From Escherichia phage vB_EcoM_G2285: a stretch of 64,000 nucleotides of DNA. The stretch lies in sequence record MK327933.1; one strand, written 5' to 3'. A program made the position numbers and the translations under genes. Positions 20,083-29,108 of this stretch are shown here, in pieces. A model generated the notes under the pieces. It worked only from the letters and a program-made list of their open reading frames with translations. It ran no database searches and had not been told where the DNA came from. Each line of letters begins with the position of its first letter. Within the stretch, counting starts at the first letter, position 1.

Positions 20083-22170
20083 CTATCCTTGGACAAATTT
20101 AAACGGAACCGATTCTAAATCCATTAAAGATGCTAACAGTTTCAATCCTTTAGGTGCACTAGTTTTTTCTATAAATGAGGAGAACGATACCGGCTCATCT
20201 GATTCGATTTCACCCGTCATAGCAACTACCTCGCCTGTTTCCATGAGAACATCACCATCGTAAATGACAGCTTCGTCCAACTGGTCCGAGGACATGACTT
20301 CAGCTTGAATAAATTTAAGGTTGGATTCTAAACCTGCACCAGTGTCAGATGACGCATCTGTAATTTTATTTATCTGCAAGAGAATGCCTCTAGGCAAAAT
20401 AATTTCTTGCTCATTAGGGTGATTACTCAACTGTCCTGGATAAATCACGTTAACTTTATGGGCGCCATCAATAGCCCATCCAACATTAACACGAATTTGT
20501 TCTGGCGCATGCATAGCGGTACGCACCAGACTAGGAGAAATAGTAACACCTTCGTCATTATTGTCAATGTTAAGCTCTTTGCGAACTTCTTCAGGAGCAA
20601 GTCCAAGGGCAACGTTCTCTTTAAACCCACCGAAAATAATAGGAGCTAGTGAAGTGGAAACATAGTTTCTGAAATAGAATACCTTATTTTTAACCATTGC
20701 TTCATAAATAGGCATTCTGATAGACTGAGCTCTATATAACGTTAGTCCTTCAGGTAAACGGTCTCCATTTAAAAACGCCGAATCAAGACCATCAATAGCG
20801 CGTTTAACTTCATCTTCATCTGCAACATCGTAAAAATCTGGTTTATAACGACCTAACAACATATTATTGATATCGGTATACGCGGAAGAGGCATATTCGC
20901 GAATAGCTCGTTTTTCAGCAACAGAGTATTGTTTAGGGTCCCGATTCATTGTTATATTAAAGGTGCCTCTAGCCGATTCTCGTGCATAAGTATACATCAC
21001 ATTAGACAAGAACGCTGATTTACGTTGTTTCCAAGTTTTTTCAGATACTTCAGCTAAAACATCGTCGGCCAGTTGGAAATTATCCCGTCTAAAATCTTCA
21101 AACCATTCGTCTTTAATAGAGTCTGCAATTTCATTTGCAGCTTCAACAAAAGCAGTTAATGCTTTAACAGATGTTGTTTTTCCAGTTTTAATTTTCTTAG
21201 CAAACTTTTCTAAAGTTGGCTTAATAACACTACCATAAGAAACTTCATCAGCAAATCTAAAGGATTCATCAATATGATTATAAATCTTATTTTCGATATC
21301 AGCAACTAAAGTGCCTTTTGCTGTGGATGATGCTTGGGCTAGTACGATTTCATATGCTTCAGGAAGTAATTCGGCTGTAGCCGGGCCACTAACTTCTTTA
21401 GCAGAATTTTCGTATTTCTGGAATAACTCACCTTCTTGGCGGTCAGCTTCTAAAGATTGGCTTGCGGCAATAGCGCGCCGAGAAATTTTAGTACGAGCAA
21501 TAACAGGCTTATCTTTACGTTTTTCTTCTACAGCAGCAATAGAACCAGCGATAGCCGTTTCTTTGGTGACCTTTTCACCAGTCTTTTTACTCACATAAAC
21601 TTCGCCAACATCAGAATCTACTTTCGTGTATAACTCTGTGTTAATGTTAGGGATGCCTTTAATATCTTCAATGTTGGCATTTTTACGAACCATCATCACA
21701 TAGGTGTGTTTACCTGTGAATTGATACATTGCCGACAATACTTTAAAACGACCACCGGTTTTAGTAGAAACTAAACGAGCAAGAAGAGTTTGAAGCTGTT
21801 GTCCACGTCCTTTCAATTTCTTGGTAGGGAATCGGAACAGAACTGCATCCATACGAAGAGCTTTAACTTGTTCATATACTGTATTGAAAATGGTGTTGAT
21901 TGCATCAATAGGAGCAGGACCAAGGCCATTTTTCAATTCGGCGAGATTACCCTTTTCAGACAGACTCATAATAACAACATGAGCGTATTTGTCGCCAAGT
22001 TTAACTTGTTTTACAGCGTCGCCTTCGGAAAGGTAAGAGAATAAACGAACTACAATATTTGTATCGATATCACCAATTTTCCAGACTTGTGGAACTTTAG
22101 CTTTAGGGTTCAAATTGACGACAGGAAGACTGCCTTCAGATTCAAACACTTCATTTAATTGTTCAGACAT
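20083..22170 (-). CDS. alt: Alt, capsid-packaged ADP-ribosyltransferase
   Basis: 695 aa; ART-like R...STS...E-x-E pattern (YRAQSIR, YVSTSL); T4 alt position. Confidence 0.8.
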   Translation of the reverse strand: MSEQLNEVFESEGSLPVVNLNPKAKVPQVWKIGDIDTNIVVRLFSYLSEGDAVKQVKLGDKYAHVVIMSLSEKGNLAELKNGLGPAPIDAINTIFNTVYEQVKALRMDAVLFRFPTKKLKGRGQQLQTLLARLVSTKTGGRFKVLSAMYQFTGKHTYVMMVRKNANIEDIKGIPNINTELYTKVDSDVGEVYVSKKTGEKVTKETAIAGSIAAVEEKRKDKPVIARTKISRRAIAASQSLEADRQEGELFQKYENSAKEVSGPATAELLPEAYEIVLAQASSTAKGTLVADIENKIYNHIDESFRFADEVSYGSVIKPTLEKFAKKIKTGKTTSVKALTAFVEAANEIADSIKDEWFEDFRRDNFQLADDVLAEVSEKTWKQRKSAFLSNVMYTYARESARGTFNITMNRDPKQYSVAEKRAIREYASSAYTDINNMLLGRYKPDFYDVADEDEVKRAIDGLDSAFLNGDRLPEGLTLYRAQSIRMPIYEAMVKNKVFYFRNYVSTSLAPIIFGGFKENVALGLAPEEVRKELNIDNNDEGVTISPSLVRTAMHAPEQIRVNVGWAIDGAHKVNVIYPGQLSNHPNEQEIILPRGILLQINKITDASSDTGAGLESNLKFIQAEVMSSDQLDEAVIYDGDVLMETGEVVAMTGEIESDEPVSFSSFIEKTSAPKGLKLLASLMDLESVPFKFVQG

Positions 22171-22210
22171 AGTGTTTTCCTTTTAGTAATAATTTATATT
22201 TATGCCAAAA

Positions 22211-22226
22211 AGAGCCCGAAGGCTCT
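22211..22226 (-). terminator. Hairpin terminator (agagcc-cgaa-ggctct)
   Basis: Perfect 6-bp stem, CGAA loop, adjacent A-run on plus. Confidence 0.55.
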
Positions 22227-22435
22227 TAATCCACAATCGGAAGCAAAGTACGATAAACTTCAAAATTAGGGCCTTTTTCGTACCCATTAACGTTATCTAC
22301 GAAAACCCGATACGAATTTTCATTAGGAAAATCTAATATAATCTGAGAGCAAGAGGTGGAAACATCTCCACCATCCTTCTTAGCTACAATAACTGTTTCT
22401 AAATAAGCTTTCATTATAAACCTGTCTGGGACCAC
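22226..22435 (-). CDS. Hypothetical protein (alt.1 position)
   Basis: 69-aa ORF between ligase and alt. Confidence 0.4.
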   Translation of the reverse strand: MVPDRFIMKAYLETVIVAKKDGGDVSTSCSQIILDFPNENSYRVFVDNVNGYEKGPNFEVYRTLLPIVD

Positions 22436-23907
22436 GGTCCAAATACGTCTTCAAACGAATCCGCTTCTGTTTTATCAAAACGGAACCCTTTAATAATTGG
22501 AAGGAAAATACCTACAGTACCTTCACGGCCTTTAGAATGAACCCAACCATTACATTCACAATCAGCGATACGTCCAATTAATTTACCTTCACGAGCTTCG
22601 GTCATTAATCGTTCACGGTCTAAATCATGACGCTCGTCTAAAGGAATAAGAACCTTTACACCGTCAACTGTTTTATGAGTTGTATCTTTAAAACCTGAAC
22701 CACAATCGGTTGTAATACGACGACAACGTGATACGAGTTCGACACCACCTAATTTGTTAGGGTCTTTAGAGTGTTCATAGTATCCTACAACTTCTAAAGC
22801 GATATCAATAACTTCTTTAAATTTAATTAGGTTCTTAGAGCGTTTGTTTTCCCAGTATGAATCACGGTTTTTAAGGATAATACCTTCAAGACCTTGGTCA
22901 ACATATTTTTTATAAACCACTTTAGCTTCATCAAGATTACGAACTAACTGGTTTTCGATAGGTTCAATTCGTTTAAAGCCTTCAGCCATATTTTCAAGAG
23001 CAGCAAAACGAACATCGTATTTCTGACCTTTAATTTTGCCATCAGAATAGACTTCATCTAAAGGAACATAGTCCCAGGCTTGAAGAACCATACCTTCCGC
23101 TTCTTTAGGAGAAATAGTCCCTTGAAGAGATTTATTTGCTAAACCATTTGAAGTGCTACGGTCTGCAACTTGCACTTCTTCGGATTCTTCATTATCACCA
23201 AATAAGAACGACAGGTCATTTCCTGAGCTCACAGCCTTTTTAATATCGAATGAATGATAAACTAATTCACCGTCGATTAAAACCCCATTAGGGTGTCTTT
23301 CACGAGCTTCTTTAGTCATTTCCATTAGTTCATCCGCTAATAGAGTAAGACCATGATATTCGTTGCCGGCACGAGAAAAGAATTGAACACCATCATCGCG
23401 AACTTCAGCGAAACAACGAGCACCATCTGCTTTTAATTGGGCAAATGCAGGCCATTTAATATTTTTAGTAATCAATTTCTCATCATATGCAGATGCTAAC
23501 ATCTGTGGTTGCAATTGAATAAGTCCAGGCCACACCTTATTCGCTATAGACACTGAAGCACCTACTTCAAGGTCGCGCATCATTACACGACGAAGGACTT
23601 CTACATCATCAGGTTTACCATCAGCGATATAACCCATGAGCTCTTTAATTGCAGCATTACCAGTGAGTTTACGAGTGGCTAATGTGAACTCAATAAAATC
23701 CAACATGGCATCTAATTCAAGAAGACCATACGCTTGAGACCTTTCACCTGGTCCTGGCCATTTCTTAATATAATACTGGATACCACGTGCATATGTTAAA
23801 CGATACACACGTTCAAGTAATTTGTTGTCCTTATTTTTCTTAAGGATTTCCTGTTTTGTTTTAGTAGAACCGATCGCAGCTATTTGGTTTAAAATATCTA
23901 AAATCAT
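22414..23907 (-). CDS. 30: ATP-dependent DNA ligase gp30
   Basis: 497 aa; ligase motif I KADGAR; T4-ligase-like ends. Confidence 0.9.
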   Translation of the reverse strand: MILDILNQIAAIGSTKTKQEILKKNKDNKLLERVYRLTYARGIQYYIKKWPGPGERSQAYGLLELDAMLDFIEFTLATRKLTGNAAIKELMGYIADGKPDDVEVLRRVMMRDLEVGASVSIANKVWPGLIQLQPQMLASAYDEKLITKNIKWPAFAQLKADGARCFAEVRDDGVQFFSRAGNEYHGLTLLADELMEMTKEARERHPNGVLIDGELVYHSFDIKKAVSSGNDLSFLFGDNEESEEVQVADRSTSNGLANKSLQGTISPKEAEGMVLQAWDYVPLDEVYSDGKIKGQKYDVRFAALENMAEGFKRIEPIENQLVRNLDEAKVVYKKYVDQGLEGIILKNRDSYWENKRSKNLIKFKEVIDIALEVVGYYEHSKDPNKLGGVELVSRCRRITTDCGSGFKDTTHKTVDGVKVLIPLDERHDLDRERLMTEAREGKLIGRIADCECNGWVHSKGREGTVGIFLPIIKGFRFDKTEADSFEDVFGPWSQTGL

Positions 23908-24173
23908 TTGATGTCCTCGATTTTGGTTACGGTTCTATTATAAGCCACTTCATCTAGAAGCGATTTCAGCGTTTTCTGATAAGTGGTAATCCATTTACCG
24001 AGACCTTCAACATAGTATTCTGAAATGTAGATGAACCCTTGTTCAACACACTCTTTAAATATTTCTGCGTCTTTTACTGAACGAAACAATGGCCGGTCTC
24101 GAAAGAACATGTTAACGTGACCGTAGTCACGCGTTGTGTTTTTGCCATCTGTAATATCATGAACTACAAACAT
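23904..24173 (-). CDS. Hypothetical protein (30.1 position)
   Basis: 89-aa ORF coupled to ligase. Confidence 0.5.
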   Translation of the reverse strand: MFVVHDITDGKNTTRDYGHVNMFFRDRPLFRSVKDAEIFKECVEQGFIYISEYYVEGLGKWITTYQKTLKSLLDEVAYNRTVTKIEDIK

Positions 24174-24182
24174 AATTAACCC

Positions 24183-24371
24183 TTAACAATTTATAGACCA
24201 AGTCCATTTAGACGAATCTAAAGGAAAGTTTTGAATCGTCCACCACGGCTGCATATCAGTTGGTCCTGGGGTTCGCCAGGTATATGGAGTACGTGTTGTC
24301 GAGGGGCCACCAATTTGATTAGGCCATGCACCTGGACTTGTTGCACCAGATTCTTTAAGCAAATCCGCCAA
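24183..24371 (-). CDS. Small Pro/Trp-rich ORF of uncertain reality
   Basis: 62-aa ORF filling the gap between two coupled genes; odd composition. Confidence 0.3.
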   Translation of the reverse strand: MADLLKESGATSPGAWPNQIGGPSTTRTPYTWRTPGPTDMQPWWTIQNFPLDSSKWTWSINC

Positions 24372-25007
24372 TCATTTTAAAAGGTCTTCACGATCTGAAT
24401 CTGAATTATGCTCAGGTGGAACCAAACGAGATTCAATATCATCCCACGTGTGTACACGTTGTGCAGTACGAGGAATGGCATCACGTTCACCACGGGCCAA
24501 CCAATAAATCGGTACATTGAGAATTTCTGCCGCATGGTCACAGTGATGAGCTAAATCGTCAACGTAACAAATTACGTTATATTTTGTTTTAGCTAGTTCG
24601 AATAATTGTTCCTTTGACGAATCATGACCACACATCATTACTTCAGAAAAGGCACCTGGGAACAAAGCATTCAAATTAAATTGTCTATTCAATCGAGCAT
24701 CAATTGAATCACCTAGCGCCGTCACGGCTACAAAATTATAGTCTTCTTTTAGTTTATTGATAACTCGAAGAGCATCTGAATAAGGCGCTAAGTAACGAAT
24801 AAAATCAGAGCGATTATATTTTTCTATTAATTGTTTACCAAGGTTATCGTCGGTATTGAATAGTTTACCAGGAGAAATAAATTTTTCATCCTGAATCATT
24901 TTTAAAATATGTTCTAATGGAAGATTATATTTTTGGGCAAAATAAGGAAGTCCAGATTGCCAGCTTAAACATACACCATCAATATCAGTCAAAATAGTAG
25001 GCTTCAT
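24372..25007 (-). CDS. HAD-superfamily phosphatase-like protein (30.2 position)
   Basis: N-terminal DIDGV motif (HAD DxDxV/T). Confidence 0.6.
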   Translation of the reverse strand: MKPTILTDIDGVCLSWQSGLPYFAQKYNLPLEHILKMIQDEKFISPGKLFNTDDNLGKQLIEKYNRSDFIRYLAPYSDALRVINKLKEDYNFVAVTALGDSIDARLNRQFNLNALFPGAFSEVMMCGHDSSKEQLFELAKTKYNVICYVDDLAHHCDHAAEILNVPIYWLARGERDAIPRTAQRVHTWDDIESRLVPPEHNSDSDREDLLK

Positions 25008-25471
25008 AAAGAGTCTCTTAATAGGTTTAACACATCAATAAATTCAGCTTCGGTTAGTATTGTATCATCTTTTGTTAGACCACTGGCCATGCTGTGCTTC
25101 AAAATTTTTCCTTTAGAGGCTTGTAAGGCATCACGAAACCCCTTGTTTTGGATCGCGGCTTCAAAATACGCATTTGTGTATAATTCTTTCCACGCTTCGG
25201 AGTATCTTGAAAACGGAACTCCTAACCAGAAGAGAGTCCCACGGTCCTGAGCTCTTGCATAAGACCTTCCAGCTTGCTGTGCGGCCAGTCCTGACAGCCC
25301 AAATATACGTCTTTGTTGTTCAACATTTTTCACCTTACATCCTTGGAGAAATCCTTCAAGACCTCCGAATTGAATACCATCCATAACAAAAGGCCATTGA
25401 GCAAAGTTACTTAATGCACACGACGGCCACTTGAAATTACTTCTTATTTCTAATTCAGACATCTTTAACAC
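25004..25471 (-). CDS. Possible NADAR/YbiA-like (DUF1768) protein (30.3 position)
   Basis: Pattern LSNF...F..DG..F.G.E...Q..K near the N-terminus resembles NADAR; inference, not verified. Confidence 0.45.
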   Translation of the reverse strand: MLKMSELEIRSNFKWPSCALSNFAQWPFVMDGIQFGGLEGFLQGCKVKNVEQQRRIFGLSGLAAQQAGRSYARAQDRGTLFWLGVPFSRYSEAWKELYTNAYFEAAIQNKGFRDALQASKGKILKHSMASGLTKDDTILTEAEFIDVLNLLRDSL

Positions 25472-25673
25472 TTATAATTTCAACATCAGCCCAATGACCG
25501 TATCCAGGTATACGGTCTTCGATAGATAAATTTCTGACATTTTTAGGCATTTTAATTGACGTAACGTATGGTTCTAAACGGTTTTCCGCGTAATATGGAA
25601 AAACGTCGGTTACACGATAAGTAACTTCAATCATTTCCGTACCAAACAATTTCTGGATTAATTTATTCAACAT
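25455..25673 (-). CDS. Hypothetical protein
   Basis: 72-aa ORF with AAAGGG RBS. Confidence 0.45.
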   Translation of the reverse strand: MLNKLIQKLFGTEMIEVTYRVTDVFPYYAENRLEPYVTSIKMPKNVRNLSIEDRIPGYGHWADVEIISVKDV

Positions 25674-25676
25674 GTT

Positions 25677-25901
25677 TCAACCCTTTAATAGGAGATAACT
25701 CTTTACCCATACGTATGTCAGAAGTCCCATCAACCCATTGAACAGCATACGCTTCATTGACAATTCCAGCGGCGGTTTTAAATTCATATACTGCTCAATT
25801 TCACATACTGAACCATTTTTATGTTTCCATAAGCAAATCGTATCAATAGAACCTGCGATACCGTTAGAAACATATTTGCGTTCGAAGTTGGTGTAGTTCA
25901 T
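25677..25901 (-). CDS. Hypothetical protein
   Basis: 74-aa ORF. Confidence 0.4.
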   Translation of the reverse strand: MNYTNFERKYVSNGIAGSIDTICLWKHKNGSVCEIEQYMNLKPPLELSMKRMLFNGLMGLLTYVWVKSYLLLKG

Positions 25902-26008
25902 TTTATTCTCCAGTTGTTTTATTGATTAGGTGGTACAAGTCTATAGTAACACATCCTACAGGAGAGTAAACATCTTTTTTAAACTTTTTCTGCCCTAAAC
26001 GCACAAAA

Positions 26009-26026
26009 GGGAGACCGAAGTCTCCC
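26009..26026 (-). terminator. Hairpin terminator (gggagac-cgaa-gtctccc)
   Basis: Perfect 7-bp stem with CGAA loop, A-run on plus side. Confidence 0.65.
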
Positions 26027-26031
26027 TAAAA

Positions 26032-26211
26032 TTATGCAACAACCTTTCCAAAACGAGAAGCATCATCTCGAAGAACTGCACGTGCTCTGCGCATGATCTT
26101 CTCAACTGTTTGATTAATACGATAGTTCGACCCACGCTTGTATCCAGCGCGTTTAGAGGTACCATCAACTTTCTTTTCAACTGCTTTCTTTGCTTTAGCT
26201 TGTTTTGCCAT
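26032..26211 (-). CDS. Small basic protein, 59 aa (not in the track)
   Basis: Hand translation MAKQAKAKKAVEKKVDGTSKRAGYKRGSNYRINQTVEKIMRRARAVLRDDASRFGKVVA; AAAGAG RBS; terminator directly downstream. Confidence 0.5.
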   Translation of the reverse strand: MAKQAKAKKAVEKKVDGTSKRAGYKRGSNYRINQTVEKIMRRARAVLRDDASRFGKVVA

Positions 26212-26473
26212 TATAAATTCTCTTTAAATGAAAATGCAGGACTTATTGACATTGCCTGCGCAAGCCCTCAAGGGGAACATAGGTTTTGGATATTTAACGA
26301 CAGGATAACCATAAACCTGTCATCATACCAACCACGACTTAGACAGATAACCTTTTCTGACGCGTGATAGTACAAAATACATTCAAGAGGTACACCGTAA
26401 AACTGCCGTGGTCTTAAAACTATAATGATTCGCAAATCATTAATCAGACAGTTCGACGGCTCCTCGATTTAAC

Positions 26474-26722
26474 TTACTTCAGGGTAATAACAAAATGACG
26501 TACTGCTTTACGAGCTGCAGAAGCCAAAGGCTTAGCATATTTCAGTTCATCTTTTGCTTCCAGTTCAGAGGCCAAAGCTGCCTGTACCGGGTTCAGATGT
26601 TTGAAATAACGCAGGATTTCCAGTGCTTCGGCTTCAACATCAATCGACGCGCCGTAGTTTTCGTGACCGTTATTCCATGCGTTTCGTTGCAGTTCAAGAG
26701 CGTGTTGTAATTGTTTAATCAT
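26474..26722 (-). CDS. rIII: rIII lysis-inhibition accessory protein
   Basis: 82 aa (T4 rIII 82); position below gene 31. Confidence 0.75.
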   Translation of the reverse strand: MIKQLQHALELQRNAWNNGHENYGASIDVEAEALEILRYFKHLNPVQAALASELEAKDELKYAKPLASAARKAVRHFVITLK

Positions 26723-26838
26723 TTTAAATTCTCAATTCGAGATAATATTTAGTAGCCACGTTCGTCTGAATTTCACCTTCTTTCGACAAGTCTCTCAGTT
26801 GTAGGCTACCGCTTAGAAGAGTGTTCTCTTCATATAGT

Positions 26839-26846
26839 TATTTATA
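26839..26846 (-). promoter_or_regulatory. Late promoter for rIII (TATTTATA on plus)
   Basis: Exact match directly below the gene 31 stop. Confidence 0.5.
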
Positions 26847-27179
26847 TCACTTATAAAGACACGGAATAGCTTTATAGTGGCATGTTACGAATTTCTGTTT
26901 AATTTCTTTAGGTTGTTTAAGTCCCAAAGCCACAAATGGATGTGGAACATTTCGAATTTGTCCAACTGGTAGTGGAGTCAAATCACCGACTTCAACAAAA
27001 CCTTCAGGAACATCAGGACCCACAGAATGAACTACACATAGTTCAGGAACTTCACCTTGAACACGTTTACCAATCACAAGTCCTGATTCGGTAACTTCTT
27101 CATCACCTGCTTGAGCGGGTTCAGAAACCAGAATGACATATTCACCAACAGCACGAATTGGGAGTTGTACTTCAGACAT
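26847..27179 (-). CDS. 31: Co-chaperonin gp31 (GroES analogue)
   Basis: 110 aa; reads as T4 gp31. Confidence 0.9.
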
Positions 27180-27236
27180 CTTATTTCCTTGTTGTTTGAC
27201 GATAGATTAATAATACCATACTATTCGTAAAGCATA

Positions 27237-27545
27237 TTACATAAGAAGCAAACGTTCTACCGGAGTACCATCAACCGAAATTACTTTATCAAGGCGGAAA
27301 GAACGCCACTGACCTAACTTGGTATCGAATGCTCGAACTGATTCACGAGGTTCAGAACGAACTTCTGTTGCCGGATTGTTATTTTCATATTTGACTTCAA
27401 GTTCATCGCGGGAGGCAAACATCGTACGAACATCACCGTTAGCCTTTTCAAATACAACACAATGAACGCCTACAGACAGAATAGTTTTAATACGTTCACG
27501 AAGAACCATAGTTTCTTGTTCAGTTAAAATCATATTATTCACCAC
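27237..27545 (-). CDS. Hypothetical protein (31.1 position)
   Basis: 102-aa ORF. Confidence 0.5.
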   Translation of the reverse strand: MVNNMILTEQETMVLRERIKTILSVGVHCVVFEKANGDVRTMFASRDELEVKYENNNPATEVRSEPRESVRAFDTKLGQWRSFRLDKVISVDGTPVERLLLM

Positions 27546-28116
27546 AAAAGTTTCGAATTTGTTCCCAATTCAGAGAACGAAGATTATTACGAGAGTACTG
27601 AATTACTTCAATACCAGCTTGTTTAAGAATGTCTGCCCAATTTTCAGGAGACCGGTCATATAATTCTGCATATACAACCTTTTTAATGCCTGACTGTGTG
27701 ATAGCTTTAGTGCAATCAGGACATGGAGAAAGTGTCGTATACAACGTAGCACCTTCAATAGAATTACCTTTACGAGCTGCAAACAAAATTGCATTCAATT
27801 CAGCATGGATTTCGTTATTAGCAGACCATACACTATGAGCAGCCCGATGTTCTTTAGCCAAAACAAAATTATCTGCCCGTCCAAATGCTGTAGTGCCTTC
27901 TTTATGTCCAGCAACGATGTCCGGGCTTGGTTTATTCTTCAACCAGCCGTTTTCGGATGCATGTTCGCAACAGTTTGTACCACCTGAAGGAGAGCCATTA
28001 TAACCTGTAGAAATAATGCGTCCATCTTTTTCAATGACGGCACCAACTTTCCATGAACAACATTTTGATTCTTGAGAAATCAAATAAGCAATTTGAAGAT
28101 ATGTGCTAGCTTTCAT
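27535..28116 (-). CDS. cd: dCMP deaminase
   Basis: 193 aa (T4 Cd 193); zinc-deaminase motifs HAE and PCxxC. Confidence 0.9.
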   Translation of the reverse strand: MKASTYLQIAYLISQESKCCSWKVGAVIEKDGRIISTGYNGSPSGGTNCCEHASENGWLKNKPSPDIVAGHKEGTTAFGRADNFVLAKEHRAAHSVWSANNEIHAELNAILFAARKGNSIEGATLYTTLSPCPDCTKAITQSGIKKVVYAELYDRSPENWADILKQAGIEVIQYSRNNLRSLNWEQIRNFCGE

Positions 28117-29108
28117 TATTGAACCTTATTAATATAAGTTAACAGCTCTTTAGTTTGTTCCCAACTGATGCACGCATCGGTAACGGAAACGCCATAGGAC
28201 ATATTATCAGAAATTTTTTGATTTCCTTCATGTAGGAATGATTCTATCATAATTCCTTTGACCAAATCATTAGCTGCTAAATTTTTACCAATACCAATTT
28301 GATTGCTATAATGCCCAGCAGCGTTTGCATGGCTACAGTCAACCATTACATAATGATTCAGACCTACTGCACTTGCTTTGTTAGAAGCTTCTTGAATATC
28401 AGAAGAATGATAGTTCGGGCCGTTGGTCCCGCCACGCAATACGATATGCGTATTCTGATTACCTTCAGCTTCAACAATGCCTACAGTACCATCGACGTCC
28501 ATACCCATATACCGATGAGGCCGGGCGGCACTATACATCGCGTCTGTAGCTACTTTAATAGAACCATTGGTCGCGTTCTTGAAGCCTACGCACATCGGTA
28601 GACCTGAAGCAATTTCACGATGTGTCTGACTTTCAGTCGTACGGGCGCCAATAGCAACCCATGAGAAAATACCAGAAAGATACTTAATCGTGAATGGGTC
28701 TAATACTTCAGTTGCTAACGGAAGTCCCATACGTAGAAGTTTACGACACAATGTTCGTGCAACTATAAGACCGTGGTTCATATCAAAACTTCCGTCAAGA
28801 TATGGATCATTTACAAGACCTTTCCAACCTACGGTAGTTCGAGGCTTTTCAAAATAAACGCGCATCACTAACAGAACATTAGGAAGACGAGTTTGAAGTT
28901 CAGCCAGACGTTTGCCGTATTCAACAGCAGCAATAGGGTCATGAATTGAACAAGGACCTACAACAATAAGTTTGCGTGGGTCTTCACCGTTCATAATCGA
29001 ATTAACTTGTTCGCGATGAGAAGCCACTTGTGATGCGTAAGCTTCCGACAAAGGAATAATCTCAGCCAGTTCTTTTGGAGAAATAAGTTTTCTGACGACA
29101 GGTAACAT
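28116..29108 (-). CDS. 3-deoxy-D-arabino-heptulosonate-7-phosphate (DAHP) synthase, class I AroG/AroF/AroH type
   Basis: 330 aa; blocks GPCSIHDP, RVYFEKPRTTVGWKGL, GARTTESQ, GFKN, LRGG, DCSHAN, ESFLHEGNQ and TDACISWE align to E. coli AroG; ATG with AAGGA RBS; stop overlaps cd start. Confidence 0.9.
   Translation of the reverse strand: MLPVVRKLISPKELAEIIPLSEAYASQVASHREQVNSIMNGEDPRKLIVVGPCSIHDPIAAVEYGKRLAELQTRLPNVLLVMRVYFEKPRTTVGWKGLVNDPYLDGSFDMNHGLIVARTLCRKLLRMGLPLATEVLDPFTIKYLSGIFSWVAIGARTTESQTHREIASGLPMCVGFKNATNGSIKVATDAMYSAARPHRYMGMDVDGTVGIVEAEGNQNTHIVLRGGTNGPNYHSSDIQEASNKASAVGLNHYVMVDCSHANAAGHYSNQIGIGKNLAANDLVKGIMIESFLHEGNQKISDNMSYGVSVTDACISWEQTKELLTYINKVQ

Follow-up and report, generated by a model that had tools for sequence, protein, structure and literature searches.

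The gene at 25004-25462 on the minus strand of the DNA analysed here is very probably an intact adfN (gene 30.3 of phage T4), encoding a counter-defence enzyme of the NADAR superfamily directed against DarTG1. That DNA, the window, is a 64,000-nucleotide stretch from Escherichia phage vB_EcoM_G2285 (MK327933.1). For the window copy, identity to T4 AdfN, fold, catalytic residues and gene integrity are established. The function of gp30.3/AdfN is already known, having been published in 2023-2025 and replicated, and the window gene is a further copy.

NADAR proteins reverse DarT1-catalysed ADP-ribosylation of guanine, and phage NADARs have been noted (Schuller et al., Mol Cell 2023; PMC11543638). 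Phage gp30.3 hydrolyses guanine-ADP-ribose in DNA in vitro and does not hydrolyse thymidine-ADP-ribose (Cihlova et al., Toxins 2024; PMC11125620); in uninfected cells, T4 gp30.3/AdfN gives no protection from DarT1 (PMC11125620). DarTG1 resistance of T2 and T4 was mapped to gene 30.3, renamed adfN, whose deletion in T2/T4 lowers plaquing on DarTG1 E. coli by about four logs; T4 adfN supplied in trans suffices to rescue RB69 on DarTG1 hosts (Johannesman et al., bioRxiv 2024/Nat Commun 2025; PMC11825919, PMC11257639). RB69 is DarTG1-sensitive: a T insertion at nucleotide 411 costs its protein the last 15 residues. Bas46 and Bas47, the closest RB69 relatives tested, carry full-length adfN and are DarTG1-resistant (Johannesman et al.; PMC11825919, PMC11257639). 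E36A, K43A and C-terminal truncation each impair T4 AdfN, and the purified protein alone strips ADP-ribose from DNA in vitro (PMC11825919). In an independent T4 transposon screen (HIDEN-SEQ), 30.3/adfN was conditionally essential when DarTG1 was present and not otherwise (bioRxiv 10.1101/2025.11.20.689424). The sequence-only reading had proposed a counter-defence against DarTG-like systems. This agrees with the T4 ortholog (97.4% identical) being the anti-DarTG1 protein AdfN, but its scope narrows to DarT1 (guanine) and does not take in DarT2 (thymine).

The open reading frame (ORF) list gives 25004-25471 (minus strand) as 155 codons with a GTG start. This ORF, singled out in the sequence-only reading as a 155-aa protein, is real and far beyond chance, as judged by its homologs and by its match to Pfam PF08010 (Phage_30_3), with E about 5e-69, a score of 231 bits (cut-off 36), and model positions 1-138 of 138 covered. 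Its 5′ end reads ...GTG TTA AAG ATG TCT GAA..., and the annotations of T4 (NP_049816.1, 152 aa) and phage mogra begin the protein at the ATG that lies here at 25462. The residue numbers E36 and K43, as published for T4 AdfN, fit the ATG start only. On both grounds the gene is taken as 25004-25462: by sequence, the true start is likely ATG 25462 and the product 152 aa, not 155, and the GTG start is rejected. The genes at this locus are as follows:

24372..25007, minus strand: gene 30.2, downstream of adfN; HAD-like core, 211 aa, with a premature TGA versus relatives
25004..25462, minus strand: adfN (gene 30.3) CDS, 152 aa plus TGA stop, ATG at 25462-25460; from the ORF list, Pfam and the T4/mogra starts
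25463..25471, minus strand: three additional codons (GTG-Leu-Lys) of the mechanical ORF call; probably untranslated, homolog annotations beginning at the ATG
25455..25673, minus strand: gene 30.4, upstream of adfN; PHROG 2042 (E 1.3e-34), sequence and synteny

The stop of gene 30.4 overlaps the adfN start by 8 nt (ATGTCTGA), which suggests translational coupling inside one early transcription unit. The adfN stop in turn overlaps the ATG of gene 30.2 (ATGA). Directly upstream of adfN there is no convincing promoter or Shine-Dalgarno sequence. A scan of 23800-27300 for sigma-70 promoters and terminators returned sites no more numerous than in shuffled sequence and is uninformative on expression. 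Since that scan did not rise above chance, we infer adfN expression from synteny and the gene overlap.

Membership of the NADAR superfamily, which the sequence-only reading had suggested from a motif, is borne out. The motif ALSNFAQWPFVMDGIQFGGLEGFLQGCK occupies residues 16-43 of the 152-aa protein; the LSNF pattern quoted earlier is there, but the gap between LSNF and the following F is four residues long where the quoted pattern has three. The residues concerned are:

25334..25414, minus strand: NADAR active-site motif LSNF...DG..F.G.EGFLQ..K, residues 17-43; from the sequence, its invariance in 91 homologs and the YbiA alignment
25357-25355, minus strand: catalytic E36; T4 AdfN E36A is impaired (PMC11825919)
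25336-25334, minus strand: phosphate-binding K43; T4 AdfN K43A is impaired (PMC11825919)
25094..25096, minus strand: H123, the phage-type third catalytic residue; invariant in 91 homologs, following the last predicted strand, 120-122

The 91 homologs were drawn from a large protein database and are the basis of our alignment and family profile. Invariant across all of them are P13, A16-F20, E36, G37, F38, Q40, K43 and H123. PF08719 (NADAR) is matched by 37 of the 91 (best E 1.5e-7), and several of the 91 were already labelled YbiA/DUF1768 by JGI. The 91-sequence profile matches E. coli YbiA (2b3w) with E 0.0046, spanning the SNF...E..FQ..K motif and aligning E36 and K43 with the E and K of YbiA. 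For the window protein alone, the PF08719 search, which the sequence-only reading had named as a check on itself, gave no match at E<=1, and nothing was found in PDB sequences (phmmer), NCBIfam or PADLOC. Because these direct sequence searches gave nothing, the NADAR link needed the family alignment and the fold. Another check named there, structure prediction and comparison with NADAR structures, came out in favour: the AF2 model of the window protein has pLDDT 93.2 and pTM 0.89, and in Foldseek the only NADAR structures take the first three places (probabilities 1.00, 1.00 and 0.97).

NADARs use a catalytic Glu and a phosphate-binding Lys; at the third position YbiA has Glu, DarT1-linked members have Asp and phage gp30.3 proteins have His (PMC11543638, PMC11125620). 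Equivalent Glu/Lys pairs within the E..FQ..K motif are E43/K50 in PnNADAR and E88/K95 in E. coli C7 NADAR. The window protein has the Glu/Lys pair (E36, K43) and the polar or charged residue of the last strand (H123).

By its closest DNA records the source phage is an RB69-like Mosigvirus, T4-like. For 24000-26000, DNA identity is highest to Escherichia phage mogra (96.6%) and stays below 99% in every record. T4 and RB69 share the gene order seen here: gp54, alt, alt.1, ligase (30), 30.1, 30.2, 30.3, 30.4 ... 30.9, rIII, 31, 31.1, cd. The gene thus keeps the 30.4-30.3-30.2-30.1-ligase position in the T-even early block that is characteristic of the AdfN family, and the order around 30.4/adfN is the same in T4, RB69, mogra and PhAPEC2. 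The window gp30.3 is the same protein as in PhAPEC2 (100% identity); identity is 99% with the mogra protein, 97.4% with that of T4 and 97.8% with RB69's truncated form. Homologs are encoded in 1510 phage records (tblastn) and fall into two groups: one at least 80% identical, from Escherichia, Shigella and other enterobacterial T-even phages, and one less than 60% identical, from Klebsiella, Acinetobacter, Aeromonas, Vibrio and other T4-like phages, with a small number from other phage families. The window protein matches PHROG 652, labelled ‘unknown function’, and the annotation is ‘hypothetical protein’ in nearly all of the 65 homolog records listed of the 1510.

Two further features of the block were observed. 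Between 30.4 and 30.9, at 25677-25990, about 0.9-1.5 kb is missing versus PhAPEC2, RB69 and mogra; what is lost comprises 30.6 (or mogra's alternative genes there) and the greater part of both 30.7 and 30.8. A 74-aa ORF at 25677-25901 joins the first 40 residues of gp30.7 to sequence lying just upstream of 30.4 in mogra. Two separate intergenic stretches of PhAPEC2 correspond to 25897-25987, which suggests a deletion through recombination between repeated upstream regions. At 28116-29108 (minus strand), directly downstream of the dCMP deaminase gene, lies a gene for a 330-aa DAHP synthase (phospho-2-dehydro-3-deoxyheptonate aldolase; Pfam DAHP_synth_1, E 2.2e-75). It is also present in mogra and is absent at that position in T4 and RB69; it is an auxiliary gene of aromatic amino-acid biosynthesis in a T-even phage.

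The sequence-only reading had set gp30.3 beside a HAD-type phosphatase at 24372-25007. Homologs of gp30.2 conserve its DIDGV motif (D8, D10; DxDGV type), T96 and a DD motif further along, but the profile evidence for a phosphatase is weak: Pfam HAD_2 scores E 0.01, under the family cut-off, and the best solved-structure match of gp30.2 alone is the 5′(3′)-deoxyribonucleotidase 2jao at E 0.29. A 7-sequence gp30.2 profile matches the deoxyribonucleotidase at E 2e-5, a value inflated by a true NT5C member from Vibrio phage D485. In that phage an NT5C-type 5′(3′)-deoxyribonucleotidase (L007 3453-3959; Pfam NT5C, E 6.2e-11) lies directly downstream of the adfN homolog, in the place of the weakly HAD-like gp30.2 of the T-even phages.

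Gene 30.2 in the window is shortened. The TGA at 24372-24374 (minus strand) falls within the 30.2 frame (24183-25007); the DNA alignment shows CGA (Arg) at this codon in mogra and RB69, and the PhAPEC2 protein also has Arg. As a result gp30.2 has 211 aa instead of about 274. Either a genuine polymorphism or an error in sequencing may account for the TGA. The HAD-like core is retained, since the missing C-terminal part shows little conservation between T4 and RB69 and the homologs of Ac42 and Aeh1 do without it.

These neighbours bear on two readings in which DarTG1 is not the whole account of the gene. In the first, adfN and the coupled HAD/NT5C-like 30.2 would form a conserved two-gene module of the Straboviridae, with gp30.2 processing a phosphorylated product once AdfN has freed ADP-ribose from DNA, or tuning the preference of AdfN for infected cells; a variant gives adfN a second, essential-like role beyond DarTG1, on the strength of its conservation across genera (97% aa versus 43-83% for its neighbours). 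We consider this improbable. Genes 30.3 and 30.2 lie side by side in T4, RB69 and Acinetobacter phage Ac42 and almost so in Aeromonas phage Aeh1; outside Straboviridae, the two phages checked (Ralstonia RSP15, Brevundimonas Kikimora) lack the adjacency. NADAR-HAD adjacency was rejected as evidence for a functional module, being limited to Straboviridae in the phages checked and adequately explained by common descent.

In the second reading, which we hold to be very improbable, gp30.3 would serve phage NAD/ADP-ribose metabolism or regulate Alt, ModA and ModB by removing ADP-ribose from protein or RNA, possibly with gp30.2 disposing of the sugar phosphate. The Alt ADP-ribosyltransferase is indeed encoded at 20083-22170, as the sequence-only reading had it (ADPrib_exo_Tox, E 2.9e-28; 93% identical to RB69 Alt). 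A link between Alt and AdfN was sought, and no evidence for one was found beyond their 2.8 kb proximity; ModA and ModB are elsewhere. The proposed ties of gp30.3 to an Alt ‘island’ and to the HAD neighbour thus gain no support. The ATGA overlap, the pairing in T4, RB69, Ac42 and Aeh1 and the NT5C-type HAD protein directly after the adfN homolog in D485 speak for this reading; against it, the adjacency is ordinary T4-core synteny, lost in RSP15 and Kikimora, and the window's own 30.2 has a premature stop. T4 Alt modifies arginine on proteins, a linkage different from guanine-ADP-ribose, which also counts against a role in regulating it. All tested NADARs, that of T4 included, are reported to act on guanine-ADP-ribose in DNA and not on thymidine-ADP-ribose (PMC11125620). 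Purified AdfN works alone in vitro (PMC11825919), and in the transposon screen the DarTG1 passage names 30.3/adfN only, 30.2 appearing nowhere in the paper (bioRxiv 10.1101/2025.11.20.689424).

The reading as an intact adfN depends also on the state of the window copy. It is 97.4% identical to T4 AdfN across all 152 residues, at the same length, and none of the four substitutions (K11R, E89P, I120V and M125I) falls at an invariant position. The C-terminal helix, missing from the inactive RB69 allele, is intact:

25007..25051, minus strand: C-terminal helix, residues 138-152 (EAEFIDVLNLLRDSL); from RB69 alignments and a predicted helix at 138-151, identical to T4

The T insertion of RB69, after codon 137, is absent: in the DNA alignment the window has CTAAC-CGAAG where RB69 has CTAACTTGAAG. 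Codon differences from T4 adfN number 33 synonymous and 4 non-synonymous, and protein identity to T4 is 97% for adfN versus 43% for alt, 66% for ligase, 60% for 30.1, 83% for 30.2 and 53% for 30.4. This excess of synonymous changes, together with 97% identity amid diverged flanks, indicates that adfN is under strong purifying selection as an active gene.

It is accordingly extremely improbable, in our judgement, that the window adfN is a non-functional remnant, as in RB69, in a DarTG1-sensitive phage. The source phage is an RB69-like Mosigvirus and decay is visible in neighbouring genes (the nonsense codon in 30.2 and deletions over 30.5-30.8), but the ORF, free of the RB69 insertion, is complete and encodes the C-terminal helix and every invariant residue, its product is 100% identical to that of PhAPEC2, and its differences from T4 are mostly synonymous (33 versus 4). 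Least credible, with next to no probability, is a YbiA/COG3236-type N-glycosidase acting on riboflavin-pathway intermediates, a second activity known from NADAR proteins, as an auxiliary metabolic gene: the YbiA-defining Glu of the last strand is replaced by His, the T4 ortholog shows a clear phenotype with DarTG1 and removes ADP-ribose from DNA, and YbiA too hydrolyses guanine-ADP-ribose in vitro (PMC11125620).

Conservation in the block is uneven. Both adfN and gene 31 have about 97% protein and about 90% DNA identity to T4, against 43-83% and about 75-80% for their neighbours, and so stand as islands of unusual conservation, or of past exchange, in the diverged block 20083-28116. T4 has an internal, out-of-frame ORF within the gene, 30.3′ (75 aa); at 25100-25326 (minus strand) of the window its frame stops after 34 codons. 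This interruption argues, at the sequence level, against 30.3′ being a real gene, and 30.3′ was rejected as the cause of the high adfN conservation.

As an intact adfN, the gene would act as follows. Once DarTG1 is triggered, DarT1 would place ADP-ribose on guanine of single-stranded phage DNA and so block replication. AdfN, produced from the early 30.x gene block, would hydrolyse the guanine-ADP-ribose bond, restoring the base and letting replication resume; it would be in effect an ‘orphan antitoxin’, a relative of DarG1. In catalysis E36 would contact the ribose and K43 bind the phosphate, with H123 replacing the Glu or Asp of other NADARs, and the C-terminal helix would be required for full activity. 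The window copy is presumably expressed and active, in which case the source Mosigvirus should resist DarTG1; we predict this because T4 AdfN rescues RB69 and because Bas46 and Bas47, with full-length adfN, are resistant. For annotation, the window copy can be named adfN with confidence. The predicted resistance, unlike the sensitivity of RB69, is relevant to the choice of phage for hosts with DarTG systems.

Among known systems, the most distant from the window protein are the DarG1/DarT1-associated NADARs (BC4488 family; G. lovleyi NADAR 8bat and E. coli C7 NADAR), at 13% identity. These are bacterial and encoded beside DarT1, whereas phage adfN is an orphan, and they have Asp in the last strand where the window protein has His; a further difference from these antitoxins is that T4 AdfN leaves uninfected cells exposed to DarT1. 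The Phytophthora nicotianae NADAR (8bau, a complex with ADP-ribose) is from an oomycete and 18% identical, and E. coli YbiA (2b3w)/PF08719 (DUF1768) is 18-21% identical; both have Glu as the third catalytic residue where the window protein has His. RB69 gp30.3 (NP_861905.1) comes from the same genus and is 97.8% identical over 137 residues. It is a natural truncated allele from a DarTG1-sensitive phage, whereas the window copy lacks the T insertion. RB69 is the Mosigvirus type member, and its DNA is arabinosylated hydroxymethylated. T4 AdfN (NP_049816.1) differs from the window protein by the four substitutions and by residing in a Tequatrovirus rather than a Mosigvirus genome, and the 30.3′ ORF annotated in T4 is not conserved in the window. 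T4 AdfN and the window copy share the 30.4 and 30.2 flanks, E36, K43, H123 and the C-terminal helix.
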